Origin: Synechococcus sp.
Lineage (GTDB): Bacteria; Cyanobacteriota; Cyanobacteriia; Thermostichales; PCC-7336
Assembly: GCA_051439605.1 (NCBI GenBank)
Contig: JBFRWN010000113.1
Location: 1 to 60,800, forward strand
Direction of reading: 5' to 3'
DNA: 60,800 nucleotides
A model generated the notes under the pieces. That model did no database searches, was not told the origin of the DNA, and saw only the letters and a list, made by a program, of their open reading frames with translations. Position 1 is the stretch's first letter. The number at the start of each line of letters is the position of its first letter. The position numbers and the translations under genes are program-made. Of this stretch, positions 1 through 20,607 are shown piece by piece.

Positions 1-97
1 GGTTAAGGAGGCAGCATTCTGGTGCTGAGATTTGTAAGTTGAAAGAGCACTTAATACGCTTGCAGTCAATCTTGCGGTAGACCTAGTGATATGAACC

Positions 98-123
98 ATC
101 GAGGGTTTGACAACCCCCTCGAT
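98..123. other. Hairpin in the leader of the nitrilase-like gene
   Basis: ATCGAGGG...CCCTCGAT inverted repeat ending about 65 nt upstream of ATG 188; function unknown. Confidence 0.35.
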
Positions 124-187
124 CTCGATGTGCAGGACAAACCTATAGCGATTGCACTCGCCACTCGATGAGACTGGAGGCTGACTC

Positions 188-1216
188 ATGACGATCGACT
201 CCCACAGAGCATTGGCACTCCAGGTCACCTGTTCGGCTGTGAATCGGGCTGGAGATCGAACTGAAGCGCGATCGCTGATGCAGCAGACCATCGATCGCCT
301 AGCGTCTCAAATTGCCGCCAGCCTTGCCTTTATCGGTCCCGACTGTCGTTTGGTGGTCTTGCCCGAATACCTGCTAACCGGTTTCCCGATGGGGGAGTCC
401 CTGGTCGGTTGGGCAGAAAAAGCTTGCTTGGATATGGACGATCCCTTGTACGACTCTCTGGGGAAAATTGCTCAAACCCACGACATCTTTTTAGCCGGAA
501 ACGCCTACGAACGCGATCCCCATTTTCCGGATCTGTACTTCCAGAGCTGCTTTGCGATCGCACCCACTGGCTCGATTGTTTTGCGATATCGCCGACTTAA
601 TTCCATGTTTGCCCCCACCCCCCACGATGTCTGGGATCGATATCTCGACTGTTACGGCCTGGAGGGCGTTTTTCCCGTGGTTAAAACTGCGATCGGCAAT
701 CTTGCGGCTGTAGCCTCGGATGAAATTTTGTTTCCAGAGGTCGCCCGCTGTTTAGCCATGCGGGGGGCAGAAATTTTTCTGCATCCTACGTCAGAAATTT
801 ACGGCCAGGGACGATCGCCCAAAGACATCGCCAAAATCGCCCGCGCTGTTGAAAATTCAGCCTACGTTATCTCTGCCAATACGGCGGGCATCGCCAATAC
901 CAATATTCCTAGCTCTTCAACAAACGGCGGCTCCCAAATCGTGGACTATCGAGGACTGATTTTGGCTGAGACCGGTGCCGGGGAGAGCATGGCCGCCTTT
1001 GCCGACATCGACCTGGCCGCCCTGCGAAGATATCGCCGTCGGCCGGGGCTAACCAACCTGCTAGCCCGACAGCGACCGGAACTGTATGTTGATTGCTATC
1101 GCCAAGCGCAGATGTATCCTGCCAACACAATGCTGCAGGGTAATGTAGAACGGCAGCACTTTATCCAAACTCAGCGAGACACCATCGCCCATTTAGCCGA
1201 GTTGGGGGTGATTTGA
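188..1216 (+). CDS. Nitrilase-superfamily carbon-nitrogen hydrolase with non-canonical triad
   Basis: VVLPEY, YRRLN, ASDEILFPE, ARAVENSAYV and GGSQIVDYRG motifs of the CN-hydrolase fold; GGAGG SD upstream. Confidence 0.85.
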   Translation: MTIDSHRALALQVTCSAVNRAGDRTEARSLMQQTIDRLASQIAASLAFIGPDCRLVVLPEYLLTGFPMGESLVGWAEKACLDMDDPLYDSLGKIAQTHDIFLAGNAYERDPHFPDLYFQSCFAIAPTGSIVLRYRRLNSMFAPTPHDVWDRYLDCYGLEGVFPVVKTAIGNLAAVASDEILFPEVARCLAMRGAEIFLHPTSEIYGQGRSPKDIAKIARAVENSAYVISANTAGIANTNIPSSSTNGGSQIVDYRGLILAETGAGESMAAFADIDLAALRRYRRRPGLTNLLARQRPELYVDCYRQAQMYPANTMLQGNVERQHFIQTQRDTIAHLAELGVI

Positions 1217-1218
1217 GA

Positions 1219-2640
1219 ATGGCTGGCCCCATTGACGTTCGCAATCCCCGCACGGGGAAGTTCGATTATCGGATTGAACCCCCAGCATCGGATCGATTGG
1301 CTCAGCTTTGCGATCGCTTGCGCAGCGCTCAACAAGATTGGCAAGCTGGAGGGCTGAAACGGCGTATCGAGGCTCTACAGCAGTGGAAGCAGTCCTTGCT
1401 CGATCGCAAAGAGGAGCTGGTTCGAGCGTTAACGGTCGATACGGGCAGACGGACGGAATCGGTGCTCGAACTGGATTCGGTGGTTTCCAGCATCGATCGC
1501 TGGTGTCGGCTAGCCCCCATATTACTGTTGGAAGCTGAGCCTCAGTCCTCCGCAATTCCCTTCATCCAATTACAGCAGCAGCTCGTTCCCTATCCCTTGG
1601 TCGGAGTCATCAGCCCCTGGAATTTTCCGCTGTTACTATCCGCGATCGACACCATTCCGGCTTTGCTGGCAGGCTGTGCCGTAGTCGTGAAACCGAGTGA
1701 AATCGCTCCTCGATTTATCCAACCTTTGGTAGAGGCGATCGCGACTGTCCCTCATCTACGAGATGTCTTGACTTACGTGGAAGGGGCAGGGGAAACGGGG
1801 GCTGCCTTAGTCGGTTGCGTCGATCTGGTTTGCTTTACCGGTAGCGTGGCGACGGGCCGAACAGTGGCAGAGGCCGCAGCTAAACGCTTGATTCCGGCGT
1901 TTTTAGAGTTGGGGGGTAAAGATCCGGCGATCGTGCTGTCCTCTGCCGATATCGAGCTGGCCACCTCAGCCATCCTGTGGGGCTCGACGGTCAATACCGG
2001 TCAATCCTGTCTCTCCATTGAACGAATTTATGTTGACGAAGCAATATTTCAGCCCTTTGTAGAAACGCTGACTCGCAAGGCAAAGCAGTTGCAATTAACC
2101 TATCCAACGGTTGACAGTGGCCAAATCGGTCCCATCATTGCCAAGAAACAGGCGGTGATTATTTCCGCACACCTCAATGAAGCCGTGGCAAAGGGCGCAG
2201 TGGTGCATTGTGGAGGGGCGATCGAAGAATTAGGTGGAGGGCTGTGGTGTCGCCCAACAGTTTTAACAGGGGTGGAGCAATCGATGAAGGTGATGTCAGA
2301 GGAAACCTTCGGCCCGATTATGCCGGTGATGCCGTTTTCGACGATCGAAGCAGGGGTGGAACTGGCCAACGACACAAGCTACGGTCTCAGTGCGGCGGTG
2401 TTTGCCGGAACGGAGTCCGACGCAATCACCATCGGTCGCCGGATCGAGGCGGGTGGCATCAGTATTAACGATGCTGCGCTGACGGCCCTGATCTACGAAG
2501 GGGAGAAGAATGCCTTTAAACAGTCCGGATTAGGGGGGTCGCGCATGGGGCCAGCTTCCTTGAGTCGATTTGTGCGCAAGCAAGCCTTTTTGATCAAAAC
2601 AAACCCAGTCCCCGATCCCTGGTGGTTCGATCTCCGATAA
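1219..2640 (+). CDS. Aldehyde dehydrogenase
   Basis: ISPWNFP, FTGS, LELGGKD, GQSC and EETFGP motifs intact; ATG 2 nt after the upstream stop. Confidence 0.95.
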   Translation: MAGPIDVRNPRTGKFDYRIEPPASDRLAQLCDRLRSAQQDWQAGGLKRRIEALQQWKQSLLDRKEELVRALTVDTGRRTESVLELDSVVSSIDRWCRLAPILLLEAEPQSSAIPFIQLQQQLVPYPLVGVISPWNFPLLLSAIDTIPALLAGCAVVVKPSEIAPRFIQPLVEAIATVPHLRDVLTYVEGAGETGAALVGCVDLVCFTGSVATGRTVAEAAAKRLIPAFLELGGKDPAIVLSSADIELATSAILWGSTVNTGQSCLSIERIYVDEAIFQPFVETLTRKAKQLQLTYPTVDSGQIGPIIAKKQAVIISAHLNEAVAKGAVVHCGGAIEELGGGLWCRPTVLTGVEQSMKVMSEETFGPIMPVMPFSTIEAGVELANDTSYGLSAAVFAGTESDAITIGRRIEAGGISINDAALTALIYEGEKNAFKQSGLGGSRMGPASLSRFVRKQAFLIKTNPVPDPWWFDLR

Positions 2641-2675
2641 GGCGTTATTAGTAGGCCCTGACAGCGATTATCCCC

Positions 2676-3650
2676 ATGAGAGCAGCACTCATTCACGCAT
2701 ATAACGGTCCAGCTTCTGTCCGAGTTGAGGAGGTGGAGGTACCGGAACCAGGTGCGGGGGAAGTCAGGATTCGGGTGGCGGCTGCAGGGATGAACAACTC
2801 CGACCTGCAGACCACCTATGGCGCTTACCGAGGATACGGTCACAAGGGACTGCCCCATATTCTGGGTCAAGAGGCTGCGGGGTGGGTGGATGCAGTGGGA
2901 TTGGATGTGACGGAATTCGTGCCCGGCATGCGCGTAGTCGGCCACGTCAGCGGTGCCTTTGCCGAAATGGCGATCGCTCCTGCAGCCGAGTTGCTAGCGC
3001 TGCCCGATGACATTTCGTTTGAGGTGGCAGCCAGTCTTCCCATCGCCTATCTGACAGCTTGTATGGCACTCGTTCATAAAGCCAAGGTCAAAGCTGGTGA
3101 ATGGGTGCTCGTACATCCAGGAAGTGGAGGGGTGGGGACGGCGGCGATTCAACTGGCCAAGCTGCTGGGGGCACAAGTCATGGCAACCGCAGGGACGGCA
3201 GCTAAGGTGGACTACCTGATCGAACTGGGGGTCGACTGCGCGATCGATCGCAGCACTCTGGATGTGGTCTCCGAAGTTCGCAAGATTGTCGGGGATGCTG
3301 GAGTTGAGGTGGCTCTCGATGGTGGGGGGAAAGTGACGTTGCCGGAGTGTTTGGAGTGCATCGCTAACAATGGCCGAATTGTCTCGTACGGTTACACAAC
3401 GGGGATGAAAGCAACTTGGCCCATCGCTAAAGCGATCGGGCGCAACGTCACCCTCTACAGCATTGCCCTCTGGTACAACTGTGACTATCAAGTCACACTG
3501 GAAACCCTGGGCAATCTTGTCCTTCCAGCCGCTGCTGAAGGCAAATTACGGCCAACCATTGATGAGGTGATCGATCTGGATGGTGTGTCTGATGCGTTAG
3601 TTCGAATTGAGAAGCGCGGTCTGAGGGGGAAGATTGTTGTACTTCCATAA
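2676..3650 (+). CDS. Zinc-independent MDR / NADPH:quinone oxidoreductase-type reductase
   Basis: AAGMNNSD, LGQEAAG, GSGGVGTAAIQLAK and C-terminal GKIVV; no Zn-ligand cysteines. Confidence 0.9.
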   Translation: MRAALIHAYNGPASVRVEEVEVPEPGAGEVRIRVAAAGMNNSDLQTTYGAYRGYGHKGLPHILGQEAAGWVDAVGLDVTEFVPGMRVVGHVSGAFAEMAIAPAAELLALPDDISFEVAASLPIAYLTACMALVHKAKVKAGEWVLVHPGSGGVGTAAIQLAKLLGAQVMATAGTAAKVDYLIELGVDCAIDRSTLDVVSEVRKIVGDAGVEVALDGGGKVTLPECLECIANNGRIVSYGYTTGMKATWPIAKAIGRNVTLYSIALWYNCDYQVTLETLGNLVLPAAAEGKLRPTIDEVIDLDGVSDALVRIEKRGLRGKIVVLP

Positions 3651-3733
3651 GCTTGAATAGCGAATTCATTTCTGAAGTGCACAATCAAATTTGAAATCGA
3701 TTGAGTTTGACTTTTTAAATATGAGGATATTCC

Positions 3734-4180
3734 ATGTCTACTATCCGAGATGAAATGCCCGTACTGGTTCGGCACGAAGGCACGTGGGAAGGTTCGTATA
3801 CCGTTATCGATAATGATTGCAAGATTATCGACCAACACAAGTCCCGTGTCACCTGCGAATTTCCCAAAGATGCTGCTTCGCCTTACTTTCAAACCAATCG
3901 ATACGAATGGCCCGATGGCCAGGTTCAGGAGTATCAGTTTCCAGGGGACTACTGCGACAAAAAACTCTGGTTTGACACAGAACGAATTGAAGGAAAGGCT
4001 TGGGAAGCTGACGATTCAATCATTATCTTGTGGTTTAGTTACAAAGATATACCAGATGCCTATGTTTATGAAATGATTCATATTAGCCCTTGTAACAATC
4101 ATCGCGCCCGCACCTGGCACTGGTTTAAAAATGGTGAAATTTATCAGCGAACTCTGATTAAAGAAGAGCGAATACGATAA
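3734..4180 (+). CDS. DUF3598-like small beta-barrel protein
   Basis: RHEGTWEGSY start and RARTWHWFKNG...RTLIKEER end, typical of calycin/FABP-like barrels; GAGGA SD. Confidence 0.7.
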   Translation: MSTIRDEMPVLVRHEGTWEGSYTVIDNDCKIIDQHKSRVTCEFPKDAASPYFQTNRYEWPDGQVQEYQFPGDYCDKKLWFDTERIEGKAWEADDSIIILWFSYKDIPDAYVYEMIHISPCNNHRARTWHWFKNGEIYQRTLIKEERIR

Positions 4181-4215
4181 GAATATCTGACTCATTAGAA
4201 AGTTAGGATGTCAAG

Positions 4216-5034
4216 ATGGAACACCGAATCGAGAGGGCATTCCTAGATTTTGAAGATGGGCAGATTCATTACCGCATCGCAGGAGAAGGCGATCCCCTAC
4301 TGTTGCTGCACATGACCCCTCGCAGTAGCGATGAATTCCGGGAATTGATGCCAATTCTGGCTCAAAACAGATGTGCGATCGCAATGGATTTAATGGGTTT
4401 AGGCGATTCTGACCGTCCTCCCCGAGTTTATTCTGTAGCGGACTATGCCAAAACAGCGATCGCACTATTGGATCAATTAGGTGTCAAAAAAAGCAGCATT
4501 CTCGGAAATCTTACAGGGGGATATATCGCAGGAGAAATAGCAGCGACCTATCCCGATCGGGTTGATAAACTTATCCTTTGCAATGTATTTGGATTTGACG
4601 AAGAAGAGAGAGACAAAATATTGCAGAGGTACACTGAAGGGTTTGCCATTAAAGATGATGGTTCCCACTTATTAGAACGATGGTTAGCTCGCGTCAATTA
4701 TGTCGGCAAGGGGCAATTAAATCACCGCTGTGTTATCGACGATCTGAAATGCTTTGGCTCTCCCGTATACACCGGTTTGGCTGTGGCAAACTATTGCCTT
4801 ACAGCCAAAGAACGATTTCAGTTAATTAAATGCCCCACTCTGATTTTGTCTGGCGAAAATGCTTTAGAACCATTAGAAAACGCTGGTTTAGCAAAGACTG
4901 AGAATCAACTTTGGCTATCGGAAGCAATTCCCCATAGTCAAAGGGTCGAACTGGGAGACGGAACCCTCTGGATGATGAATCAAATGCCTGAGGAAGTATC
5001 GCAAATTGTCGTCAATTTTCTGGAAAGCTATTAG
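4216..5034 (+). CDS. Alpha/beta-hydrolase fold protein, paralog 1, atypical elbow GNLTG
   Basis: PLLLLH, DLMGLGDSD, YPDRVDKLIL and PTLILSG motifs. Confidence 0.9.
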   Translation: MEHRIERAFLDFEDGQIHYRIAGEGDPLLLLHMTPRSSDEFRELMPILAQNRCAIAMDLMGLGDSDRPPRVYSVADYAKTAIALLDQLGVKKSSILGNLTGGYIAGEIAATYPDRVDKLILCNVFGFDEEERDKILQRYTEGFAIKDDGSHLLERWLARVNYVGKGQLNHRCVIDDLKCFGSPVYTGLAVANYCLTAKERFQLIKCPTLILSGENALEPLENAGLAKTENQLWLSEAIPHSQRVELGDGTLWMMNQMPEEVSQIVVNFLESY

Positions 5035-5044
5035 GAGGAAGACA

Positions 5045-5968
5045 ATGCAAAACAACCTACCGCTGATTATCGAGTGTCGTTGCAACGACATGGACTACCG
5101 CCAAGATAATCCCGCTTTTCCTTACAGTCCGCAGGAGATCGTCCGGGAAGCAGTTCGAGCTTGGGAAGCGGGAGCCTCGATTTTTCACTGGCACGGGCGC
5201 GATCCAGTTAGTGGAGAGTGGATCAACGACGTTGAACTCTATCTTGAAGTGATTCAGGGCATCCGGGAAAAGACCGATCTGATTGTCGATCCGACGCTTG
5301 GCTACATCACCACGCAGAAGAGTGTCGAGGATCGCGTCCGCCATATTTTAGCTGCGAAGAACGATCCAGCACTCGGAGTTGACATGGTCCCTCTGGAATT
5401 TGGTTCGTTCAATGTGGACTTTTGGGACCCACAAAGCAAGCAATTCAAGACGTACGACCAAGTTTATGCCAATTCTCGGGCTCACATTCAGGGGGTGCTA
5501 GAGATACTGAAGGAGCACAATATTTACGTCAGTTGCGCCTGTTGGAACATCGGCCAGATTAGGGCGGCACGTTGCTTTCAAGAGATGGGCTTCCTGTCAC
5601 ACAATACGTTCTGGGAGTTTGTCTTCACCGGAGAAATTATGCCAGCTGGTGCTCTGGGGACGTTCTCTGGTGTGCAGGCGATGGTGGATGCCATTCCCCC
5701 TGCCGAACCGTGGTTGGTCATGTGTTGGAATGGGGATGTCATGCGTTTGGCATCATGGGCAATTACGATGGGAGGCCACGTCGGCATTGGACTCGGAGAT
5801 TGGCCCTACAACCGCTTCGGAACCCCGCACAACGGCGATCTCGTGGAGATGGTTGCCAAGATGGCGCATACCCTCGATCGCGAGGTTGCCACACCAGCTC
5901 AAGCTCGGGAAATCCTGAAGATGTCGCCTCGATCGCAACTAGCAACTGAGGCGGTGCCATCGGCATAG
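5045..5968 (+). CDS. DUF849 / beta-keto-acid cleavage enzyme (BKACE/Kce) family protein, atypical
   Basis: PYSPQEI, AGASIFHWHGRD, GGHVGIGLGD and REVATPAQAREIL; start placed at ATG 5045 after AGGAGG. Confidence 0.85.
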   Translation: MQNNLPLIIECRCNDMDYRQDNPAFPYSPQEIVREAVRAWEAGASIFHWHGRDPVSGEWINDVELYLEVIQGIREKTDLIVDPTLGYITTQKSVEDRVRHILAAKNDPALGVDMVPLEFGSFNVDFWDPQSKQFKTYDQVYANSRAHIQGVLEILKEHNIYVSCACWNIGQIRAARCFQEMGFLSHNTFWEFVFTGEIMPAGALGTFSGVQAMVDAIPPAEPWLVMCWNGDVMRLASWAITMGGHVGIGLGDWPYNRFGTPHNGDLVEMVAKMAHTLDREVATPAQAREILKMSPRSQLATEAVPSA

Positions 5969-6013
5969 ATGTCAAATAGGGTGGGCAATAGCGATAGGGG
6001 TCTGGATTGACAG

Positions 6014-6847
6014 ATGAGCAAGAAAATTAAACGGGCATTTTTAGACACAGAAGACGGACAGATTCTTTACCGCATCGGTGGAGAAGGCGAGCCATTGCTC
6101 TTACTGCACATGAATCCTCGCAGCAGCGATGAATTTCGCGAGTTGATGCCCATCCTTGCTCGAAATAGACGAGTCATCGCAATGGATTTGATGGGGTTTG
6201 GCGATTCCGACAAGCCACCCAGAATGTACACAATTGCCGATTATGCCAATACTGTAATTGCACTATTAGACGAATTAGATATCAACAAGACGAGCATTTT
6301 AGGCAACCATACAGGGGCTTTTGTCGCGGGAGAGGTGGCGGCAGCCTATCCCGATCGGGTTGACAAACTTGTATTGGGAAATGTGCCTGGATTTGGAGAA
6401 GAAGGGAAAGCCAAGCTATTTGAGTTGTTCGATATCGGCTTCAAAATCAAAGACGATGGTTCCCACTTAATGCAAAGATGGCAGGCCCGTTCCAGATACG
6501 TCGGATCTGCCGAGCTCAACCACCGATGGGTTTTAGACGACTTAAAATGTTTTGGCCATCCTTTATACGCCGTTTGGGCCGTGGGAGAATACTGTCTGGA
6601 TGCTGAAGATAGATTGCGAGCGATCGCATGTCCAACACTCATCATGTGGGGAATGGAAGACGTGCGAGAATTTGAGCGCCTCGGCTTGGCAAAACCTGAA
6701 AATCGCTATTTTGTCTCTCAAGCTATTCCCCACGGCAAGGTGGTTGAATTTGAACAGGGGACCATCTGCATGATGAACCAGATGCCTGAAGAGGTATCCA
6801 AGGTTGTCATCGATTTCCTAAATCATTCGGAATCGCCCAGCCTCTAA
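6014..6847 (+). CDS. Alpha/beta-hydrolase fold protein, paralog 2, atypical elbow GNHTG
   Basis: Collinear homolog of 4216-5034 with the same motifs. Confidence 0.9.
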   Translation: MSKKIKRAFLDTEDGQILYRIGGEGEPLLLLHMNPRSSDEFRELMPILARNRRVIAMDLMGFGDSDKPPRMYTIADYANTVIALLDELDINKTSILGNHTGAFVAGEVAAAYPDRVDKLVLGNVPGFGEEGKAKLFELFDIGFKIKDDGSHLMQRWQARSRYVGSAELNHRWVLDDLKCFGHPLYAVWAVGEYCLDAEDRLRAIACPTLIMWGMEDVREFERLGLAKPENRYFVSQAIPHGKVVEFEQGTICMMNQMPEEVSKVVIDFLNHSESPSL

Positions 6848-7263
6848 CGGTCGAGGACTGCCGTACACTTAATCTCTACGATTAGCCCTGGCGTAGATAA
6901 ACCCGTCACCCCAACTCCCGTCCAGGTGGGGAATTGATGGGTGAAGTACCGATCTTTAACCTGCATAAACAGCGGCAGGTGAGGAATTGTCACTGGAGTT
7001 TTCTCTGCTTCGGTCACGTGGTAAGTCATCATCTCGACGACATCATCGAACGTGGCGCCTGCAGCCGACAGTACCTTTTTCACATTCTCGAACGCTTGTA
7101 CAAATTGAGCTTCTAGTTCTTCGACAACTTGTAAATTCTCATCGCGTCCCACCTGCCCCGAGATATACAGCGTATTCCCGACCTTAATGCCAGGGCAATA
7201 GCGATACTTCTCGTATAAGATTTCCATCCCTGGCGGGATAATGACGTCGCGGGTTGTGCTCAT
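6844..7263 (-). CDS. Rid (RidA/YjgF) family protein, Arg-less Rid4-7 type
   Basis: LYISGQVG, AFENVKKVLSAAG, PTWTGVGV and VEIKCTA motifs. Confidence 0.85.
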   Translation of the reverse strand: MSTTRDVIIPPGMEILYEKYRYCPGIKVGNTLYISGQVGRDENLQVVEELEAQFVQAFENVKKVLSAAGATFDDVVEMMTYHVTEAEKTPVTIPHLPLFMQVKDRYFTHQFPTWTGVGVTGLSTPGLIVEIKCTAVLDR

Positions 7264-7337
7264 GGCAAATATCCTCGATATCCTCTCGTCGATCGACGTA
7301 ATGTACTACTGGAGATGAAACCTCTGAGGTCAAGCTC

Positions 7338-8129
7338 GTGAAAGTCGCACTGCTCACTGGAGGCACTCGCGGCATTGGTTTAGCGATCGCTCGCAAGCTG
7401 GCAAGTGACAGCTTCAATCTTATCCTCGGCTACCGTTCCGATCGCCAAGCTGCTCTTGCAGCCAAGACCGACTTAGAAACCTATAACGTCAAGGTTGTGA
7501 CGGTGGCGGGAGACGTCAAGGAGAGCGAGACAGTTGACTCCCTGTTCGAGGCGGTCGAAGTAGACTTTGGCGGTCAGCTGACTGCCTTCGTGCACGTGGC
7601 TGGGTATGCCATTACGGCCACGCTACCGGCTGGATTCACGTTCGAACAATACGAGGAGGCTCAGAGTCTTTATCCAAAGGCGTTTCTGAGGTGCATGGAG
7701 AAAGCGGTGAGGTATATGCCTGACAGGGAGGGACGGGCGATCGCTATTTCTGCCAGTGGTGTGCACAATCCTGGCAAAGTCTATGCCATGTCTGCACCTG
7801 CAAAAGCTGGAATGGAGGTATTGGCTAAGCACTACGCGATCGCCCTGGCTCCGCGGGGCATTACGGTCAACATCGTAACGCCGGGCTATGTCAAAACTCA
7901 GGCGTGGGACGGATATCTGGACGCTTTACCCGAAATCGCTCGGGTCCCCCAACAGAGCACCCCCATGGGGAGATGGGGGCAGCCGGAAGATATTGCCCCC
8001 TTGGTCGCTTTCCTATGCTCTCAAGACAGCGGATTCATTACAGGACAACATATTTACGTGGATGGGGGGTTAAGCCTTTCTTTGTTTTGGAACATTCATC
8101 GGATGAGCGACAATTCCCAGTCCGATTAG
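7338..8129 (+). CDS. SDR oxidoreductase, divergent enoyl-reductase-like type
   Basis: TGGTRGIG, Y-x6-K (YAMSAPAK), VNIVTPG and ITGQHIYVDGG. Confidence 0.88.
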   Translation: MKVALLTGGTRGIGLAIARKLASDSFNLILGYRSDRQAALAAKTDLETYNVKVVTVAGDVKESETVDSLFEAVEVDFGGQLTAFVHVAGYAITATLPAGFTFEQYEEAQSLYPKAFLRCMEKAVRYMPDREGRAIAISASGVHNPGKVYAMSAPAKAGMEVLAKHYAIALAPRGITVNIVTPGYVKTQAWDGYLDALPEIARVPQQSTPMGRWGQPEDIAPLVAFLCSQDSGFITGQHIYVDGGLSLSLFWNIHRMSDNSQSD

Positions 8130-8179
8130 TCAGAGATCCTAACCGTGATATCTGTGAATGTTTAGAATTATGGCATCTT

Positions 8180-8977
8180 TCATTCGCCATAAGATGACAC
8201 TGCCCCTGTTTGTGATAAATCGCGATCGACGCGAACAAAAAATAAGCCACCTGCCTCTGTCTTATGTCTAGGAACAGTTGAAAAGCTAGGACAATAACTG
8301 AAATGATTTTTGGCGAATCTGTAATTTCCGATATCGCAATACCCAAATAAGCCGTATGACTTTTCGTTATAGGCTTGAATCATGGCATGCCTGCCATCGT
8401 AATGCGGCAAAATAGCGATTAGCCAAGTTCCACCCCCATTTTTATCTTTTCTGAGCCACTTCTTTTTGGAGGTCTCAAACTGAACTGTTTCAGTCTTGCC
8501 CCACGGCAACAATGTGCTATCCAAAGCTGGAATAAAGTCTCTTAATCTGGTGTCAGGGCGATCGCCTTGTGCGGCTTCGTAGCTAAGGGGAACAGGCCCG
8601 TTCTCCATCCACAGAAGGTCCGCATTCTCTCCACCCAGCACTTTCCAAGGACCTATATTGACTCCAGCCGGAATGAAGGAATAACCATGCTTGCCCAGTT
8701 TCCACTCTCCTATTTGGATTGCGCCCGACAGCACAAAAATCTCTACATCGGCAGAGAATATTCCAGAGGGAGCCTCAAAATTTTGCGGCAGCATCACTCT
8801 TGAAGTGGATGCTCCGGAATCACGCCAAGTCAGCAATCGACGTTTGCCCGCTATCACCCCTGCGGACATGCCATCGATGCGCCATTCCCGTTCCGCTACG
8901 GCATTGGTATCAAAAAACTGGTATTGCCGAGGTCGGTAGTCATCCGAGCTTGCTGTGGTTCTTCCCGATAAGTTCAT
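8180..8977 (-). CDS. Bicupin protein (DUF4437-like)
   Basis: Two cupin-like repeats (VEIFVLSG..IG...YSFIPAG; G..DIG...FSYCP); family recognised by eye. Confidence 0.6.
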   Translation of the reverse strand: MNLSGRTTASSDDYRPRQYQFFDTNAVAEREWRIDGMSAGVIAGKRRLLTWRDSGASTSRVMLPQNFEAPSGIFSADVEIFVLSGAIQIGEWKLGKHGYSFIPAGVNIGPWKVLGGENADLLWMENGPVPLSYEAAQGDRPDTRLRDFIPALDSTLLPWGKTETVQFETSKKKWLRKDKNGGGTWLIAILPHYDGRHAMIQAYNEKSYGLFGYCDIGNYRFAKNHFSYCPSFSTVPRHKTEAGGLFFVRVDRDLSQTGAVSSYGE

Positions 8978-8984
8978 CTGCCTC

Positions 8985-9083
8985 TTACCCTCTGACCCAA
9001 TTCACTTTGAGAGGTGAATCCTGCAAACAGCGATCGACTGCTCGTTCGCGATCGCCCTCCAACTCTCTCAGCAAATCGTCCAT
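8985..9083 (-). CDS. Possible 32-aa small ORF or gene remnant (MDDLLRELEGDRERAVDRCLQDSPLKVNWVRG)
   Basis: AGGAGG SD upstream of the ATG; stop lies 7 nt before the bicupin ATG; below the ORF-track cutoff. Confidence 0.35.
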   Translation of the reverse strand: MDDLLRELEGDRERAVDRCLQDSPLKVNWVRG

Positions 9084-9164
9084 GACTTCCTCCTAAAAAC
9101 ACACGATCTTCACAGTAAATTTCCTATTCCAACCCGCTCAATCCACTCCGATGAAATCTCAAAT

Positions 9165-9195
9165 AAGTCCCCCATGAGTGGGGGATTTAGGGGGC
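9165..9195. repeat. Cyanobacterial short dispersed palindromic repeat (REP/SDR-like)
   Basis: AAGTCCCCCATGAGTGGGGGATTTAGGGGGC: TCCCCCA/TGGGGGA stem plus a G-run tail. Confidence 0.55.
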
Positions 9196-9261
9196 CACAT
9201 CTCAGCACATTTTCCTAAGATGAAAAGGATTGAAACTCACAAGAGCCCATAGGAGCACCCC

Positions 9262-10461: not shown

Positions 10462-11652
10462 CTAGGTGGGCATGTCCTCCGCTGGATACAGCGTGCAGCT
10501 TGCCAATGTCATCGGCTGGTTGACAGTTTCTAGCTGAGAGGTCTGCAGTCGTTGCATCCAGCCAGCCAAGTACTCTCGGACTGCTGCTTGTTCTGTAGGG
10601 TCCGTTGTTTGCACCGGGTAAGGAGATAAACCGCGGATGGCTGCCGTAGTCACGCAGAACATTGACTTCTGAAACGTTTGACAGATCTGAATATGGAGGT
10701 CGTCTTCACCCCGGCAACTGGTGCTGTAAAAGTCAGTCAGGTATTTGGGCAAGTGGCGGGCCATATCCTCCATCAACAGAGTGGGCGGAATGCCAGCTCC
10801 ACCAATGGGCAACGGATCGGCATACAGAGCACCGTAGGCAAAGTCGCTGCGCTCAGGGGAGATCTGCCCGGCCTGTGCGTTGTAAGATACGGTCCCGAAA
10901 AATGGCGTTCCCCGGAAGAAAATACTCTCTACATACGGTATGGCAGTATCGGGTAGAAACGTGAGTTCAGCCTCTGCAGGCAAAATATCGTAAGGTTGAC
11001 CGCCAATCTCCACGGTGTAAGTAATGGGTCGGGCCGCCGCTGCAACAATTCCCTCTTGAATGTGGTCGGTTAGTTGCCCCACAGTGGTAATGTCGCCGCG
11101 ATCGTAGAGGTCGGACAGGGAGGTAAAAATATCGCTCATTACCCGCCAAAATTGCCCCAAACCGCTGTAGTAGCAATGCATCCTTACTTGCTCTAAAAAC
11201 AATTTGGGGAACAGCTTGTTCAGTCCCCAAAGAACTGGATTCGCGGCCACCCTAGCGGCAATGGCGTTGCGGGCAAGTTGTTCGAACTCTGCTGAATCAA
11301 GGTAAGCATCTAACCCCCCTCCGCCATGCCACATCATCGTACGGCCGCAGTATTCGGCGTACTCGTAATTGATGCGATCGTGACCCCAGTGTTTGAGCAG
11401 CTTTTCTGCCGAAATCTCTCCGTTGAAATATTTAAAGAAGGGGAACAGTCTGAGGAACTGGTGGTCGGCAGCGTAAATCAGATTAATGGAATAGGCGTCC
11501 AGTACGATGCCGTAGCTTGCTAAAATCCCCACCACCTCTAAGACGTTGGTTGTGGACTCAGGTAACAGAACCCCACCTGACATCAACCGTTCAATGTACT
11601 CATTCAGCGGGGAGGAGTTCGGTTCGATCGAGGATGGTGCAGTCACGGTCAT
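10462..11652 (-). CDS. cupB: CO2 hydration protein CupB (ChpX)
   Basis: FPFFKYFNGE, HDRINYEYAEYC, MWHGGGGLD and LYADPLPIGGAGIPPTL; no cupS nearby; in operon with ndhF4/ndhD4. Confidence 0.9.
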   Translation of the reverse strand: MTVTAPSSIEPNSSPLNEYIERLMSGGVLLPESTTNVLEVVGILASYGIVLDAYSINLIYAADHQFLRLFPFFKYFNGEISAEKLLKHWGHDRINYEYAEYCGRTMMWHGGGGLDAYLDSAEFEQLARNAIAARVAANPVLWGLNKLFPKLFLEQVRMHCYYSGLGQFWRVMSDIFTSLSDLYDRGDITTVGQLTDHIQEGIVAAAARPITYTVEIGGQPYDILPAEAELTFLPDTAIPYVESIFFRGTPFFGTVSYNAQAGQISPERSDFAYGALYADPLPIGGAGIPPTLLMEDMARHLPKYLTDFYSTSCRGEDDLHIQICQTFQKSMFCVTTAAIRGLSPYPVQTTDPTEQAAVREYLAGWMQRLQTSQLETVNQPMTLASCTLYPAEDMPT

Positions 11653-11654
11653 TG

Positions 11655-13211
11655 CTAACTAAAAGTGGAAAGGTTGTGGGGAAAGGCTTGGCTAGAGGGG
11701 ACATCTGTGCGGGAGGTCAATACAGCGATAGATGGGTTTTCTACCGTTGCAACTGCTCGCGGCGGGGTTATAGCAGTGGTGGTGGTCTCAATACAACGGG
11801 CTATCCAACCGGGCTGAACCCCTAAAATCACAATCAGAACGGCCAATATTAGCGCTGGGATGCGATCTCTCCACAGCACCCGTGGAATCCGAATGACCTC
11901 AGGGGATAACCGTCCAAAAAATGCTTGGTTGAGCAGAATCAGGAAGTAGACAGCGGTCAGACCCGTGCCCAACATGGCCAACAGCGTTTGTACCGGAAAA
12001 GCCGGTAGGCTGCCCCGAAACACCACAAATTCCGCGATAAATCCTGACATACCTGGAATACCGCAGCTGGCCATTGCTGCCAGAATCATCAGACTCCCGA
12101 TCACGGGTAGTCCTCGTTCGCGGTTCAATAGCCCTTCTAGGACTTGTATGCTCCTGGTCCCCGTTTTGGTGTAAACCACCCCAACCAGCAAAAACAGCAA
12201 CGCAGAAATCAGACCGTGGCTGACCATCTGGAAGGTGGCCCCCAGCAGGCTGAGCGGATTGGCCGCAGCGGCTGCGAGGGTGATATAGCCCATATGCGCC
12301 ACCGAGCTATAGGCCACTATTTTTTTCATATCTGTTTGAGTGACAGCAATCAGGGCTCCATACAGGATGCTAAAGACCGCCACCCAAGCCAGCCATGGAG
12401 CTGCTATCCTCCAGACGTCTGGAAAGAGCTGTACCCCAAATCTCAAGATGCCGTAAGTGCCCAGCTTCAGCAGTACCCCTGCCAACAGTACGGAGACTGG
12501 CGTGGATGCCTCCACGTGTGCATCCGGCAGCCAAGTATGCAAGGGCACAATCGGAGTTTTGATTCCCAGCCCTACCAAAATAACGATCAGCAATACAAGC
12601 TGGGTTGCCACCGGTAATATAGCGTTCTGGGCATCGACAAAGTCGAAACTGGCGGCATGCCCCAGCCAAACCACTCCCAAAAATCCAGCCAAAATCAGGA
12701 TGCCGGAAAGGGCAGTATAAATCAGAAACTTGGTAGCCGCGTAAGCACGCCGCTTGCCGCCCCAGATAGCAATCAACAGGTAGAGTGGAAGCAGCTCAAT
12801 TTCGTAAAACAAGAAGAACAACAGTAGGTTCTGAGCCGTAAATGCCCCTGCCACCGCAGCGCTCAATAACAGAATCAGCGAGTAGTACAAGCGGTACCGA
12901 GAAATAGAGGGCTTGCTGATGTAGATGGCAACACCGGTTAAAAAACTATTCAGAACGAGCAGCGGTAGCGACAAACCATCCGTTCCCAAGCGATAGTGCA
13001 GACCTAACTGAGGTAACCAGCTCAGCTGCTCTTCAAACTGAATCGATGACAATGACAGGTCGAGTTGAGTGGCGATCGCCAAAGACACCGCGAATCCAAT
13101 GGCGGTAAATATCAACGCGAGCTGTCGAGCGGCTTTGGAAGAGATGGCTCCCGGCCACAACCCGATGGCCACTGCCCCAACCACCGGTATCCAAATTAGG
13201 CTACTGAGCAT
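11655..13211 (-). CDS. ndhD4: NDH-1 subunit NdhD4
   Basis: PLHTWLPDAHVEASTP, LLKLGTYG and AYSSVAHMG; paralog assigned by context with cupB. Confidence 0.88.
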   Translation of the reverse strand: MLSSLIWIPVVGAVAIGLWPGAISSKAARQLALIFTAIGFAVSLAIATQLDLSLSSIQFEEQLSWLPQLGLHYRLGTDGLSLPLLVLNSFLTGVAIYISKPSISRYRLYYSLILLLSAAVAGAFTAQNLLLFFLFYEIELLPLYLLIAIWGGKRRAYAATKFLIYTALSGILILAGFLGVVWLGHAASFDFVDAQNAILPVATQLVLLIVILVGLGIKTPIVPLHTWLPDAHVEASTPVSVLLAGVLLKLGTYGILRFGVQLFPDVWRIAAPWLAWVAVFSILYGALIAVTQTDMKKIVAYSSVAHMGYITLAAAAANPLSLLGATFQMVSHGLISALLFLLVGVVYTKTGTRSIQVLEGLLNRERGLPVIGSLMILAAMASCGIPGMSGFIAEFVVFRGSLPAFPVQTLLAMLGTGLTAVYFLILLNQAFFGRLSPEVIRIPRVLWRDRIPALILAVLIVILGVQPGWIARCIETTTTAITPPRAVATVENPSIAVLTSRTDVPSSQAFPHNLSTFS

Positions 13212-13232
13212 ATTTTCCCTTCACATCCAACG

Positions 13233-15080
13233 TTAAAGACTACCGGTGACCATCGACCAGCTCATCATAATGCCCAGCAATCCCAGCGCAATCAAAATAG
13301 TGAGTAGATAAAATTGAGAGCGGCCAGACGTGCTGTACTTCATGCTCTCTCCACCAAACAGCGTGGCCATACCCACCAAATTGACCGCACCATCGATCGC
13401 GTAGCGGTCGATCCAGATACCAACTTCAGAGAGCCCTCTGACTAAAGGAACGACTGTCATTCGGTACAGGCGATCGATATAAAAATCGAATGCCAATAAA
13501 TTCTGTATCGCTGGAACTGGGAAGACGATGGGTTGTGCCACCCAGCCCCACATGTAGAAGCCCAAAGCCAGGAAGGCCCCCGAGAAGCTTGCGACGACGA
13601 TGCCTGCAATCCAAAACACCGGCAAATACTGCAAATCTGAAGCCATGGCTGTTTCCAATAACAACACTGGAGTCGTTATCACGAAAAGGCCCAAGGCAAC
13701 CTGAGGAAATGCCATCGGCCAAATGACTTCTGGAGCGCGACGAGTCTTCTGCTTGGCGGGACCAGAAAACGCGAGGCTGTAGGCCCGCATTAGGCTAAAG
13801 GCGGTCAGGCCGTTGACTGCCACAACAACGACAGGCATGACTGGCTGTAACAGCCCAACCACTTCGATCCAGTGAACCATGCCCCAAAAGCAACCCAGGG
13901 GGAGCAGGCCAACCATTCCGGCCATACCCAACAGAAATGCCGTTGAGGTGACGGGCATGCGCTCCCCCAAACCACCCAGCTCCCGTAAATCTTGGGTATG
14001 AGTGGTGTAGATGATGGATCCACAACTCATAAACAGCAATGCCTTCGCCACCGCATGGGTAAACAGCAGCACTAAGGCAGCATCGGTGCTATTGAGACCA
14101 ACAGCAATAAAGACCAGCCCCAAATAGGCGCTAGTGGAATGGGATAGTACGCGTTTGATATCGACCTGAGCAATCGATACTAGCGATGCGCCGATCGCCG
14201 TGGCAGTTCCTAAAGCAATCAGGACATCGGCGGCGATCGGGGAGAGTGTCAGTACCGGCTGCAGTTGGATCAGGATATAAGCTCCAGTGGTAACAACCAC
14301 TGAGTTACGCAAGATAGAAGCTGGGTTAGGCCCCTCCATTGCCTCGTCCAACCACTGGTGCAAGGGAAACTGAGCGCACTTACCGATAGGACCGGAAATC
14401 AGTGCCAAGCCCAGCAACGTACTGACCGTTGGTGACAGCTCGGCAGAGTTCGCCCATGCGGATAAGTCTGTATAGTTGAGACTGCCCGCCAGGGTAGAGA
14501 GGGTAACTACCCCCATTAACAACAACAGATCTCCGACTCTTTTCGTCCAAAATGCATCTCTTGCAGCGGTTCTAGCGAGGGGCTGAGCATACCAAAAGCC
14601 AACAAGTAAATAGGTTGAAAGCGTGAGTAATTCCAACAAGCAGTAACTCAGCAATAGTGAATTACTCAGGGCTACACCAATCATTGCTGCTTCAAAGAAA
14701 CCCAGCATGCAGAAAAAACGGGCCATCCCCCAGTCTTTCTCCAGGTATCCCAGAGCATAAAGCTGCGCAAATAGGCTGAGCCAAGCGACTAACTCGGTTG
14801 CTGCAACCGAAACAGGTGATATTCGCAAACTGAACGACAAGTCGAGATTAACCACCTGCAGCCAAGGCACAATCATCTCCAGCCCAGCTGTGCCCCAAAT
14901 TGCTTGGAGGACGATGGCACCATGTACGCAAGCTAACAGACTCAACACAAGGTTGATGTAAGCCCCTAATCGCGGCCCTGTTCCGCGAACCATGCCAGCT
15001 GCCCAAGGTACAGTAGCGACTGCCCCCAGCAGTCCGTAGAGGGGTAGCAACCAGCTTGTCTGAACCCAAAATTGCTCCAT
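13233..15080 (-). CDS. ndhF4: NDH-1 subunit NdhF4
   Basis: AARDAFWTKRVGD and GKCAQFPLHQWLDEAMEGPNPAS; paralog assigned by context with cupB. Confidence 0.88.
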   Translation of the reverse strand: MEQFWVQTSWLLPLYGLLGAVATVPWAAGMVRGTGPRLGAYINLVLSLLACVHGAIVLQAIWGTAGLEMIVPWLQVVNLDLSFSLRISPVSVAATELVAWLSLFAQLYALGYLEKDWGMARFFCMLGFFEAAMIGVALSNSLLLSYCLLELLTLSTYLLVGFWYAQPLARTAARDAFWTKRVGDLLLLMGVVTLSTLAGSLNYTDLSAWANSAELSPTVSTLLGLALISGPIGKCAQFPLHQWLDEAMEGPNPASILRNSVVVTTGAYILIQLQPVLTLSPIAADVLIALGTATAIGASLVSIAQVDIKRVLSHSTSAYLGLVFIAVGLNSTDAALVLLFTHAVAKALLFMSCGSIIYTTHTQDLRELGGLGERMPVTSTAFLLGMAGMVGLLPLGCFWGMVHWIEVVGLLQPVMPVVVVAVNGLTAFSLMRAYSLAFSGPAKQKTRRAPEVIWPMAFPQVALGLFVITTPVLLLETAMASDLQYLPVFWIAGIVVASFSGAFLALGFYMWGWVAQPIVFPVPAIQNLLAFDFYIDRLYRMTVVPLVRGLSEVGIWIDRYAIDGAVNLVGMATLFGGESMKYSTSGRSQFYLLTILIALGLLGIMMSWSMVTGSL

Positions 15081-15389
15081 CAATGACGTCCTGAATTACC
15101 TTTTGCCTAAATATCACCCAGCCTTTCACACGCTATCGATAGCCCTACTGGACGGCCGATCCCAAATCTAAGAGGTTTGTAGCAGTATGCCTTTACTTTA
15201 CTAGGAGCCATGCCCATTCATCATCATCTATTGAGGTGGCTTCGCTGCTGGTGTGGCCCAAAATAGACAGTTCGTCTGGAGCAACACCATCCAATCGCTA
15301 GCTAGCCGCACTCGCAGCCACAACAGTTAAGCGCATCTACTCTGTGCGGTCCCTTCTAGCCTTGACGAACAAGGATTTAATTTTCTACA

Positions 15390-16545: not shown

Positions 16546-16884
16546 ATGGCGATCGCAGTTGGAATGATAGAGACGCTGGGTTTCCCAGCTGTAGTTGAAG
16601 CCGCCGATGCAATGGTGAAAGCTGCTCGCGTCACCCTTACCGGTTACGAGAAGATAGGCAGTGGTCGCACTACTGTCATCGTCCGCGGTGATGTCTCTGA
16701 GGTACAGGCTTCAGTAGCTGCGGGGATTGAGTCAGTTAAACGAGTGAGTGGTGGCCAGGTGCTTTCTCACCACATCATTGCGCGTCCCCACGAGAATCTG
16801 GAATACGTCCTTCCGATCCGCTATACCGAAGAGGTCGAGCAGTTCCGGGAGAGCGTCAGCGGTATTCGCTCCCTCCGACCTTAA
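16546..16884 (+). CDS. ccmK1: Carboxysome shell hexamer CcmK1
   Basis: Nearly identical to CcmK2 with a ~10-aa C-terminal extension; AAGGAG SD before ATG 16546. Confidence 0.92.
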
Positions 16885-17203: not shown

Positions 17204-17379
17204 TAGAACTCTTCAGGCAGCTGTGTCCCATCAGTCAGAGCTGTATTGAGACAGATTACTATGTATGACTTTTAAGTAGTCTTCCTCAGCTACGCCTGTC
17301 TCCTAGAGTTGCTTTCTAAACTTCCGACTCGTGCTTGGCGGGTGCCTGGCATCGTAATCACAAAACGCAGGGTTTAAAG

Positions 17380-19401: not shown

Positions 19402-19544
19402 TGATGACGCAACCTGATATAGCGATCGTCACCCGAGGACATTTCAGCGAGCTGTATACCCCTGATTAGGCATAGATCCTGCTGTCCGAGCTGAAATCCA
19501 TCCAGCTATAGTTTCCGGCCTCGTTGTGTTAAGGTCTCACCAGC

Positions 19545-20513
19545 ATGTACATCCAACCCCTACAAGCTGTCGACAATCCTGGTTGCTATCATGTAGGCGG
19601 CGATGTATCCATTCACCCTTCTGCAACGATCGCGCCTGGAGCGCTTATTCATGCAGAACCCAACTGTAAAGTCAGCATTGGCTCAGCAGCCTGTATTGGC
19701 ATGGGGGTTGTGATCCATGCGTGCGAAGGAGATGTTGAAGTTGACTCTGGGGTAAACCTTGGGGCAGCTGTACTCATCGTCGGACACGCATCAGTTGGCG
19801 CTAATGCTTGCGTTGGATCTTCGACCACAATCCGCAACAGTCGTGTTGGGAGTGGAGAGGTGGTTCCTCCAGGTAGCCTAATCGGTGCTCTTGGGAAATC
19901 TACGTCTCCTTTTAGTTTTTCCTCCCAAGCTGTGAATAACGATAACCTCTCCGGGAATGAAGAGCGTCCCGTCGAGGATGTTTCGGAAACTGATAAGTGT
20001 TGTCGTCCTTCCCATCTAGTTGGGTCTGCGGCTAGCGGCGTTTCGCCTCTCAGCACTTCCACAGCTTCAGATGGTTTATCGCCCCCCGATCGCAAAGAGA
20101 CGTTTGAGGAGAGTGCACCCCCCCCTTCTGTCCCTAACGAACCTGCTACTGCCCTTGTTTCTGGACCACCCGTCGATCTGACGGGTTATAACTCTATTCA
20201 TAAGGTTGTTAGTCCGGAAGAAGATGCCCCAGACCCCGATCGAGTGGATAGTCTAGAGGGGAGTAGCCCTAACGAAAGTGAGAAATTTGTCAGTAACGAT
20301 GCAGTGGGTGTTCGGGTAGCGTCCTCCACGTCTTCTTCACCAGAGCAAGATTCATCCGAACTCCTTACGGGAGAATCGCTAGTGATTCCAGAAAAAGAGC
20401 AACAAATTGCCCCCTCTCCAGCCTTTGGTAAATCGCAGGTTCACCGTCTCATGAAGTCTCTGTTTCCTTATTCGTCAAACCACGGAAACGGGGCCTCTTC
20501 ACCGGATGCATAA
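19545..20513 (+). CDS. ccmN: CcmN
   Basis: N-terminal hexapeptide domain, long low-complexity linker, encapsulation peptide FGKSQVHRLMKSLFP. Confidence 0.92.
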   Translation: MYIQPLQAVDNPGCYHVGGDVSIHPSATIAPGALIHAEPNCKVSIGSAACIGMGVVIHACEGDVEVDSGVNLGAAVLIVGHASVGANACVGSSTTIRNSRVGSGEVVPPGSLIGALGKSTSPFSFSSQAVNNDNLSGNEERPVEDVSETDKCCRPSHLVGSAASGVSPLSTSTASDGLSPPDRKETFEESAPPPSVPNEPATALVSGPPVDLTGYNSIHKVVSPEEDAPDPDRVDSLEGSSPNESEKFVSNDAVGVRVASSTSSSPEQDSSELLTGESLVIPEKEQQIAPSPAFGKSQVHRLMKSLFPYSSNHGNGASSPDA

Positions 20514-20607
20514 ACATGTATGGAGATTGAATTTTTCCGCTTCAGATCTTTCATTAGCATCAGCCGTCCAGTCTTAGTTGGCCCCCACTCCTTCATTTGT
20601 GCTCTCT

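Follow-up and report, generated by a model that had tools for sequence, protein, structure and literature searches.

Near the start of a 60,800-nt stretch of Synechococcus sp. DNA (GenBank assembly GCA_051439605.1, contig JBFRWN010000113.1, positions 1 to 60,800 of the forward strand; the window) lies a gene for a 342-aa nitrilase-fold protein in which the Lys and the Cys of the Glu-Lys-Cys triad are replaced by Arg and Ser. We use the name NITL for this protein, the product of the open reading frame at 188..1216 (+), and for its orthologs. Throughout the nitrilase superfamily, Glu-Lys-Cys counts as the signature that defines catalysis. New here is a large clade of the nitrilase fold, maintained by selection, in which both Lys and Cys have been replaced and for which Glu-Arg-Cys intermediates are visible on the tree; the window adds a Synechococcus PCC 7336-like member to this Glu-Arg-Ser (E-R-S) clade. 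In cyanobacteria, the gene is part of a conserved module with genes for an aldehyde dehydrogenase (ALDH) and a DUF3598 β-barrel protein.

Glu60, Arg136, and Ser177 occupy the triad columns of a nitrilase-fold protein

Both its fold and its Pfam match make NITL a member of the nitrilase superfamily. CN_hydrolase (PF00795), the family named by the initial annotation for a check, matches residues 41-284 (E = 1.1e-29, 104 bits versus a cut-off of 23.2). In phmmer comparisons with Nit2 (2w1v), Nit3 (1f89), and NitFhit (1ems), S177 aligns with the catalytic Cys and R136 with the Lys. When an 82-member family profile was aligned to AmiE (2uxy) and AmiF (5g3o/2dyu), the triad columns corresponded to E59/K134/C166; the top match of the profile was AmiE 2uxy (2.8e-42), in an AmiE/AmiF range of 2.8e-42 to 1.6e-39. 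A script check found E60 within VVLPEYLL, R136 within LRYRRLNSM, and S177 within AAVASDEILFPEVA. The Glu-Arg-Ser reading of the initial annotation is thus borne out by the Pfam match, the alignments to solved enzymes, and the script, and the codon positions that it gave for R136 (593-595) and S177 (716-718) are arithmetically right. The equivalence of the three residues is based on sequence and profile alignments, not on model coordinates.

An AlphaFold2 model of NITL built from the family alignment has a mean predicted local distance difference test score (pLDDT) of 96.4. Foldseek searches with this model returned AmiF 5g3p (E = 6.8e-20, template modeling [TM] score 0.69) and AmiE 2uxy as the nearest structures; AmiF, AmiE, and Nit2 together gave TM scores of 0.60-0.69 at 17-22% sequence identity, and the top 200+ matches were nitrilase-fold enzymes. 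The second catalytic Glu, E142 in the numbering of the Geobacillus pallidus and Pseudomonas aeruginosa amidases, falls in a region where NITL carries an insertion: the hidden Markov model alignment puts T144 opposite the AmiF Glu, and the invariant D147 lies three residues on. His146 was considered as a new general base in a Ser-His-Asp arrangement and was rejected, because several members of the E-R-S clade have Tyr, Leu, or Gln there.

Of the classical triad, NITL retains the first Glu; the Lys position holds Arg136 and the Cys position holds Ser177. The NCBIfam equivalogs for formamidase (PRK13287, 58.8 versus 406 bits) and aliphatic amidase (PRK13286, 50.7 versus 427 bits) score far below their cut-offs. 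Because NITL departs from two of the three catalytic residues and falls short of all equivalog thresholds, it should not be called a nitrilase, an aliphatic amidase, or a formamidase, and the automatic labels "nitrilase" and "aliphatic amidase" on source entries are misleading for these genes.

Conservation and selection

The cyanobacterial ortholog set comprises 80 loci from GTDB species representatives, among the matches listed, plus the window (81 in total). E60, R136, D147, S177, E179, E184, H199, and E203 are each present in 81/81 orthologs, none of whose frames contains an internal stop. E60, R136, and S177 are also kept in all of 17 further named cyanobacterial orthologs (74-87% identity). 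The invariant residues are not tied to single codons: Ser177 is encoded by TCA (41 orthologs), TCG (17), TCC (12), TCT (10), and AGT (1), and Arg136 by five codons. Relative to the window, the median nonsynonymous divergence (dN) is 0.17 and the synonymous divergence (dS) is ~2.7, which is saturated; for the closest ortholog pair, the values are 0.098 and 0.93. The resulting dN/dS for NITL is ~0.06-0.1, and identity between orthologs is 70-77% for NITL, no lower than the 64-72% of the neighboring ALDH. NITL is therefore strongly conserved and under purifying selection, with Glu-Arg-Ser fixed. The initial annotation had named conservation of Arg and Ser among homologs as a check on its reading and Glu-Lys-Cys in close homologs as evidence against it; clade homologs keep E-R-S down to 34-50% identity, and Glu-Arg-Cys (E-R-C) and Glu-Lys-Cys (E-K-C) occur only in more distant relatives. 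The nearest sequences include a near-identical metagenome protein (P0002, 99% identity to NITL) and a protein from Synechococcus PCC 7336 (P0003), 87% identical to the window NITL.

The distribution of NITL in cyanobacteria is patchy. It is present in 26/401 sampled genomes, in 20/45 genomes of one family, and in 2/41 near relatives, a count that includes the window genome. The other PF00795 genes found in the window genome encode distant E-K-C proteins on other contigs. One two-domain CN-hydrolase of this genome (G000:C106:3046-4533 [-], locus L003) has one E-K-C domain and one degenerate domain with Gly at the Cys column, the architecture also seen in the 520-745-aa two-domain relatives described below. 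A NITL remnant comprising only residues 229-342 was found at G164:C1:2187173-2187514. A further locus (L073, CALRKB020000076.1), assigned to a "Rhizobium sp. Q54" bin, has a NITL-ALDH pair of cyanobacterial type (75% identity) with DUF1838 and SnoaL genes, and is likely a mis-binned cyanobacterial contig rather than the site of a rhizobial gene.

Place of the clade in the nitrilase superfamily

A homolog search of 1.84 billion cluster representatives returned 3376 matches with E <= 1e-3, 179 of them at <= 1e-30. Among the best 150 proteins, 125 aligned domains covered all three triad positions: 59 read E-K-C, 18 E-R-C, 14 E-R-S, 8 E-K-A, 7 E-K-S, and 3 Q-K-A, the remainder being various singletons. 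The ASEE motif is present in many additional fragments from this search. Relatives of ~520-745 aa consist of two nitrilase domains, usually one canonical and one degenerate.

A phylogenetic tree was made with the quick IQ-TREE option from 82 rows (15 cyanobacterial orthologs and 67 of 69 single-domain representatives of 320-385 aa), after removal of two trait columns; P0217 and P0228, which looked partial, fragments, and two-domain forms were left out. The midpoint split, which has a weak support of 77, leaves all 36 Arg-bearing rows on the same side, where the E-R-C rows form a basal grade. A clade of 25 rows (support 88) contains 23 E-R-S proteins, one E-R-A protein (P0219), and one E-R-C protein, and the core E-R-S clade of 20 rows, including the window, has a Shimodaira-Hasegawa-like approximate likelihood ratio test (SH-aLRT) value of 98. 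On the E-K-x side, the Cys has been lost repeatedly, the 82 rows including seven EKA, four EKS, two QKA, and singletons such as EKG, QKG, and GAG.

The replacement of Lys136 by Arg covaries with that of Asp179 by Glu, two residues after the nucleophile position: Glu179 is found in 100% of E-R-C and 91% of E-R-S rows, and Asp in 86% of E-K-C rows. Position 176 passes from Ile through Pro to Ala across the groups. The simplest history is a change of Lys to Arg with a compensating change of Asp to Glu in Cys-bearing ancestors, followed by a change of Cys to Ser. As K136R and D179E also occur in the Cys-bearing E-R-C proteins, Arg is compatible with a site that bears Cys and is presumably catalytic.

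The clade extends beyond cyanobacteria and comprises hundreds of species-level matches from GTDB representatives and metagenomes, at least as many as those listed. The 90% cluster of P0122 includes a protein from a Chromatiales metagenome-assembled genome. Among the matches listed, 80 metagenome loci gave 81 aligned stretches of proteobacterial-type relatives with 48-85% identity to P0122; 79/81 read E-R-S, and of the other two stretches one is cut and one does not cover the positions. Two metagenome proteins (P0272 and P0273) fuse an FAD_binding_4 oxidase to the E-R-S domain, and P0274 fuses the domain to a methyltransferase. Each is the single member of its cluster, and the three are treated as leads, since gene calling across a frameshift may account for them.

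Conserved gene order in cyanobacteria

NITL, then ALDH, then the DUF3598 barrel is a conserved gene order. At 66 of the 73 loci with enough sequence, ALDH lies directly downstream of NITL on the same strand, with a gap of 0-333 nt; it is near but nonadjacent in 4 loci and was not seen in 3. In a set of 12 relatives, the two genes are co-located in 12/12. A DUF3598 gene is found downstream of NITL in 45/56 loci, and the window follows the same order, with a quinone-oxidoreductase-type (QOR) gene inserted between the last two members (Table 1). The initial annotation had read the 2-nt spacing between the NITL stop and the ALDH start as a sign of consecutive steps. The spacing itself is right, since the ATG at 1219 fits the N termini of 12 orthologous ALDHs, and the link to ALDH is real; the tight spacing is a local feature. 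Given the range of gaps, adjacency is conserved but translational coupling is not.

DUF3598 is present in 25/26 NITL-positive genomes among the 401 sampled, a descriptive count in that related genomes are not independent. Six of the 401 genomes have DUF3598 without NITL, two of these with a stop in frame and one with a fragment. Signs of module decay are seen in some Nostocales-type genomes: besides the NITL remnant in G164, DUF3598 genes with an internal stop lie at G314:C2:2420603-2421046 and G366:C1:2612053-2612496, both in genomes without NITL.

A gene for a red chlorophyll catabolite (RCC) reductase-like protein (PF06405; RCCR-like) lies directly upstream of NITL on the same strand in 21/72 loci and elsewhere in the locus in 5 more. 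An RCCR-like partner was also sought in the window genome and was rejected: this 99.98%-complete genome has no PF06405 match, and a search with the RCCR-like protein of locus L046 gave only a 20-bit match. The NITL-ALDH-DUF3598 core thus persists without an RCCR-like gene in this Synechococcus PCC 7336-like genome. A hydantoinase/allantoinase-like cyclic amidohydrolase is encoded within 8 kb of NITL in 13/80 loci. In a complete genome of the same genus (G402), the order is an Asp/Arg-hydroxylase-like gene, the cyclic amidohydrolase on the same strand as NITL, a 750-nt gap, NITL, ALDH, DUF3598, and an alpha/beta hydrolase, with RidA and short-chain dehydrogenase (SDR) genes nearby. The window genome has an 89%-identical ortholog of this amidohydrolase on contig C30. 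It was considered as a gene lost at the contig break and was rejected, since it is internal to C30 and at least 1.5 kb of other sequence lies downstream of it.

Other neighbors are less frequent among the 80 cyanobacterial loci: SnoaL (8), a second QOR (7), β-keto acid cleavage enzyme (BKACE; 2), and PaO-type Rieske oxygenases (2, plus L046); the counts for alpha/beta hydrolase 2 and DUF4437 are given in Table 1. The richest cluster around NITL-ALDH-DUF3598 is L046 (G284:C10; 5966-7318 [+], 10609-11364 [-], and 13024-14013 [-]), which contains a PaO-domain Rieske oxygenase, the RCCR-like reductase, a second Rieske/VanA-type oxygenase, a TetR regulator, an HpcH aldolase, RidA, BKACE, and two alpha/beta hydrolases. 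A 342-aa protein without a Pfam match (L035:10599-11627 [+]), paired with DUF1838, is encoded just upstream of NITL in 9/72 mostly non-Nostocales cyanobacterial loci, with homologs in L052, L068, L072, L073, L079, L083, L089, and L105.

Genes around NITL in the window

The window starts at base 1 of its contig (C113), so that 187 nt are visible upstream of NITL, whose stop codon occupies 1214-1216. The features of the NITL region are collected in Table 1.

Table 1. Features of the NITL region of the window
Feature	Position	Strand	Remarks
GGAGG ribosome-binding-like site	176..180	+	7 nt before the NITL ATG; seen in the sequence
NITL coding sequence, nitrilase-fold, Glu60-Arg136-Ser177	188..1216	+	ATG start, 342 aa; Pfam, alignments, AlphaFold2 model
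Glu60 codon, first catalytic Glu retained	365..367	+	E in 81/81 orthologs
Arg136 codon, catalytic Lys position	593..595	+	R in 81/81; five Arg codons used
Asp147 codon, PTPHDVW motif, candidate counterpart of second catalytic Glu	626..628	+	Invariant; equivalence to AmiE E142 uncertain
Ser177 codon, catalytic Cys position	716..718	+	S in 81/81; five codons used
Glu179 codon, nucleophile +2	722..724	+	Asp in E-K-C relatives, Glu in Arg-bearing relatives
ALDH, succinate-semialdehyde-dehydrogenase-like	1219..2640	+	PF00171, E = 1.5e-103
MDR reductase, quinone-oxidoreductase/zeta-crystallin-type (QOR)	2676..3650	+	Local insertion between ALDH and DUF3598
DUF3598_N β-barrel protein, 148 aa	3734..4180	+	PF12204; third module member
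Alpha/beta hydrolase 1	4216..5034	+	Recurs in some relatives
BKACE family protein	about 5006..5968	+	PF05853, E = 2.2e-66; also in L046, L095, L103
Alpha/beta hydrolase 2	6014..6847	+	11 of 80 cyanobacterial loci
RidA/YjgF-family (enamine/imine deaminase family) protein	6844..7263	-	Recurs in L035, L037, L046, L210
Short-chain dehydrogenase (SDR)	7338..8129	+	83%-identical copy in same-genus locus L210
DUF4437 cupin-like protein	8180..8977	-	9 of 80 cyanobacterial loci

The best NCBIfam match of the ALDH is the succinate-semialdehyde dehydrogenase PRK09407 (357 bits, below the cut-off of 521). Its catalytic Glu and Cys are present, and the ELGGK and GQSC motifs are invariant. Two starts are available in the frame: a TTG at 1213 that overlaps the NITL stop, and the ATG at 1219, two bases past it. 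QOR-related reductases recur elsewhere in other NITL loci. The model of the DUF3598 protein is a 10-stranded barrel (pLDDT 93.4), with BFA1, the DUF3598 structure 2o62, the CpcS-type Ycf58 (3bdr), the bilin lyase CpeS (4tq2), and nitrobindins as its nearest folds. On this modeled fold, the protein is predicted to be a barrel that binds small molecules, a type to which tetrapyrrole binders belong.

In an Rfam gathering scan covering the first 2.7 kb of the window and seven related loci, no riboswitch or leader turned up close to NITL; away from NITL, it found only one NsiR1 small RNA and CRISPR repeats. The NsiR1 match (nitrogen-stress-induced small RNA, RF02399, 51.9 bits) lies at 16565-16615 (+) of L043, ~6 kb from the NITL cluster of a Nostocales genome. 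A consensus scan of positions 1..9200 for promoters and terminators found fewer sites than in shuffled sequences. A search of sequencing runs gave 13 matches of DNA type, from 4 studies, and none of RNA. CO2-concentrating genes adjoin the catabolic cluster of the window (10462-15083 [-] and 17335-21390 [+]); they encode a ChpX/Y CO2-hydration protein (PF10216, E = 2.4e-179), two NdhD/F-type NDH-1 antiporter-like subunits, a 688-aa CcmM-like protein with hexapeptide repeats and four RbcS-like repeats, and a tandem-BMC shell protein.

Neighborhood outside cyanobacteria

In the 80 metagenome loci, the alpha subunit of a type II dimethyl sulfoxide (DMSO)-reductase-family enzyme is encoded directly downstream of NITL in 21 loci (17 adjacent), and the Fe-S beta subunit of such an enzyme is present in 14. 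ALDH is found in 18 loci (8 adjacent), a divergent methyltransferase in 17, DUF1838 in 11, an FAD_binding_4 oxidase in 8, and DUF3598 in 6. A dihydroorotase gene beside some metagenome NITL genes was considered as part of the system and was rejected: at 682 bits, its product exceeds the pyrC equivalog cut-off of 535 and is probably a housekeeping enzyme.

Proposed function and alternative explanations

From the sequence evidence, we favor the reading, with chances of about even, that NITL is an enzyme carrying out thiol-free C-N hydrolysis, of an amide, half-amide, or lactam, in a step coupled to the downstream ALDH. In the mechanism that we envisage, Glu60 would be the activating base and the Arg136/Glu179 pair would take over polarization of the carbonyl from the Lys/Asp pair. 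Ser177 would act as the nucleophile, and its role as a covalent one is possible but doubtful. As substrate, we envisage a catabolite that contains nitrogen and would be processed either to an aldehyde resembling succinate semialdehyde or downstream of one; a cyclic amide or imide after ring opening, or a product derived from pyrrole, is a possible candidate. The pathway may combine reductases with a linear C-N hydrolase, RidA, a semialdehyde dehydrogenase, and BKACE, and in close relatives also with a cyclic amidohydrolase; by analogy, this gene set resembles routes of ring reduction, ring opening, deamidation, and oxidation for N-heterocycles. A pigment-derived (pyrrole, lactam, or imide) substrate is attractive because of the frequent RCCR-like gene, the bilin-lyase-like barrel, and the occasional PaO-type oxygenases, but it is unproven. 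We offer only tentatively the fuller proposal that Glu-Arg-Ser is a naturally evolved thiol-free triad, derived from Glu-Lys-Cys via Glu-Arg-Cys, in a cyanobacterial catabolic module (NITL, ALDH, bilin-lyase-like barrel, and often the RCCR-like reductase) that would open lactam/imide-type amides of pigment-derived or other N-heterocyclic breakdown products.

Several observations weigh against these proposals. Cys-to-Ser mutants of canonical nitrilase-superfamily enzymes are generally inactive. Such forms have been used in crystals (C158S of MtCPA, 5h8l; AmiF 2e2k with ISHD versus 2dyu with ICHD), so that a Ser in the nitrilase scaffold is not automatically competent. The many losses of Cys in the sister E-K-x branch and the degenerate domains of the two-domain relatives indicate that noncatalytic forms are common in this branch; moreover, the E-R-x clade includes an E-R-A protein (P0219), and the second catalytic Glu is without a clear counterpart in NITL, T144 and D147 being the candidates. 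The idea of a pigment-derived substrate is weakened by the lack of an RCCR-like gene in the window genome. The commonest neighbor outside cyanobacteria is the type II DMSO-reductase-family enzyme, not ALDH, in contexts that are redox dominated, and the wider neighborhood is variable; no single substrate is implied.

Part of this evidence would also suit a noncatalytic pseudoenzyme whose pocket only binds a ligand or partner, for example by passing a labile amide or aldehyde on to ALDH as an intermediate, or which acts as a sensor or chaperone. The canonical nucleophile and the Lys are both lost, Cys loss recurs in the E-K-x branch (EKA, EKS, QKA, EKG, QKG, and GAG), fused relatives pair a degenerate domain with a canonical one, and the gene order with ALDH is very tight (66/73). 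We nevertheless regard this explanation as rather improbable. At a pure filler position, one would expect drift to Ala, Gly, or Thr of the kind seen in the E-K-x branch, yet the Ser is invariant in the 81 cyanobacterial orthologs and in 79/81 metagenome stretches, over a range of 48-100% identity, and is encoded by each of the four TCN codons as well as by AGT. Glu60, Glu179, Glu184, His199, and Glu203 are invariant too, the change of Lys to Arg is compensated by that of Asp to Glu, and the window genome offers no closely related catalytic paralog as a partner, the other PF00795 genes found there being distant E-K-C ones. NITL might instead be an enzyme but no covalent serine hydrolase, with Glu60 activating water and Arg136 and Ser177 polarizing or positioning, or might catalyze a different reaction, such as decarboxylation, tautomerization, or a lyase reaction on a carboxylate held by Arg136. 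Arg at the Lys position together with Glu at nucleophile +2 suggests a retuned electrostatic site, the E-R-A member P0219 fits a nonnucleophilic role of the Cys position, and contexts of redox enzymes (the type II DMSO-reductase family, FAD_binding_4 including the fusions, QOR, and SDR) rather than of classical amide pathways are in line with other chemistry. The basal E-R-C relatives, however, keep the classical nucleophile, which points to covalent catalysis in the ancestor, and the strict conservation of Ser exceeds what positioning usually needs; we hold this alternative to be unlikely. The unusual residues alone could also have come from an error in sequencing, or from an ordinary amidase inactivated by a recent mutation. 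This explanation is refuted, its probability being negligible: the reading frame is uninterrupted, the same residues occur in 81/81 orthologs, which come from independent assemblies, and in P0002, dN/dS is low, and the two substitutions and the third, covarying one are fixed clade-wide.

If the clade is catalytic, the nitrilase fold supports a chemistry based on an oxygen nucleophile or on water, to which thiol oxidation would do no harm; this could be relevant in oxygen-evolving cyanobacteria. Otherwise, NITL represents a widespread pseudoenzyme locked to an aldehyde dehydrogenase. In either case, the NITL-ALDH-DUF3598 module, often with the RCCR-like reductase, appears to mark an undescribed pathway in heterocyst-forming and other cyanobacteria.

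Comparison with known systems

In the literature consulted, which was mainly the open-access part, we found no account of a Ser/Arg nitrilase-fold protein; the same, mainly open-access, literature yielded nothing on cyanobacterial DUF3598 proteins or on a gene cluster combining RCCR, nitrilase, and ALDH. The best profile and Foldseek matches to NITL are AmiE (P. aeruginosa 2uxy; G. pallidus 2plq/4lf0) and AmiF (Helicobacter pylori 2dyu/2e2k; Bacillus cereus 5g3o/5g3p), with TM scores of 0.66-0.69. They share with NITL the alpha-beta-beta-alpha fold, a length of ~340 aa, the first Glu in a PEY motif, a PE motif after the nucleophile strand, and an RA.EN motif. NITL differs from them in having Arg136 for Lys, Ser177 for Cys, and Glu179 for the Asp at nucleophile +2, and in an insertion of ~10 residues around PTPHDVWDRYLDCYG, where AmiE and AmiF have the second catalytic Glu.

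The omega-amidases Nit2 and Nit3 (2w1v and 1f89) are the best single-sequence PDB matches to NITL (E = 1e-11). Unlike NITL, they have a canonical E-K-C triad and ~275-290 aa, and they belong to a different branch of the superfamily. Their action on dicarboxylate half-amides, if shared by NITL, would be in keeping with a pathway whose last enzyme is an ALDH of the succinate-semialdehyde type.

In two-step ring-opening pathways, a nitrilase-fold enzyme follows the ring-opener, and reductive catabolism of heterocycles employs a ring-opener, a linear C-N hydrolase, and a semialdehyde dehydrogenase. The cyclic amidohydrolase encoded upstream of NITL in the same-genus genome fits the two-step scheme of the hydantoinase/N-carbamoylase and dihydropyrimidinase/β-ureidopropionase routes, and with NITL and ALDH behind it the gene order there matches that of reductive heterocycle catabolism. 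The known second-step enzymes of such routes are E-K-C, unlike NITL, and the cyclic amidohydrolase of the window genome is on another contig; no ureide-specific genes were seen.

The E-R-C and E-K-C relatives (among them P0135, P0137, P0148, and P0155; P0174 and P0169) are 30-41% identical to NITL and of equal length. They have the NITL motifs, including the HD/GD-containing insertion, and the E-R-C proteins also have Arg136 and Glu179. Unlike NITL, these relatives, which are labeled "predicted amidohydrolase" or are unnamed in their sources, retain the Cys nucleophile.

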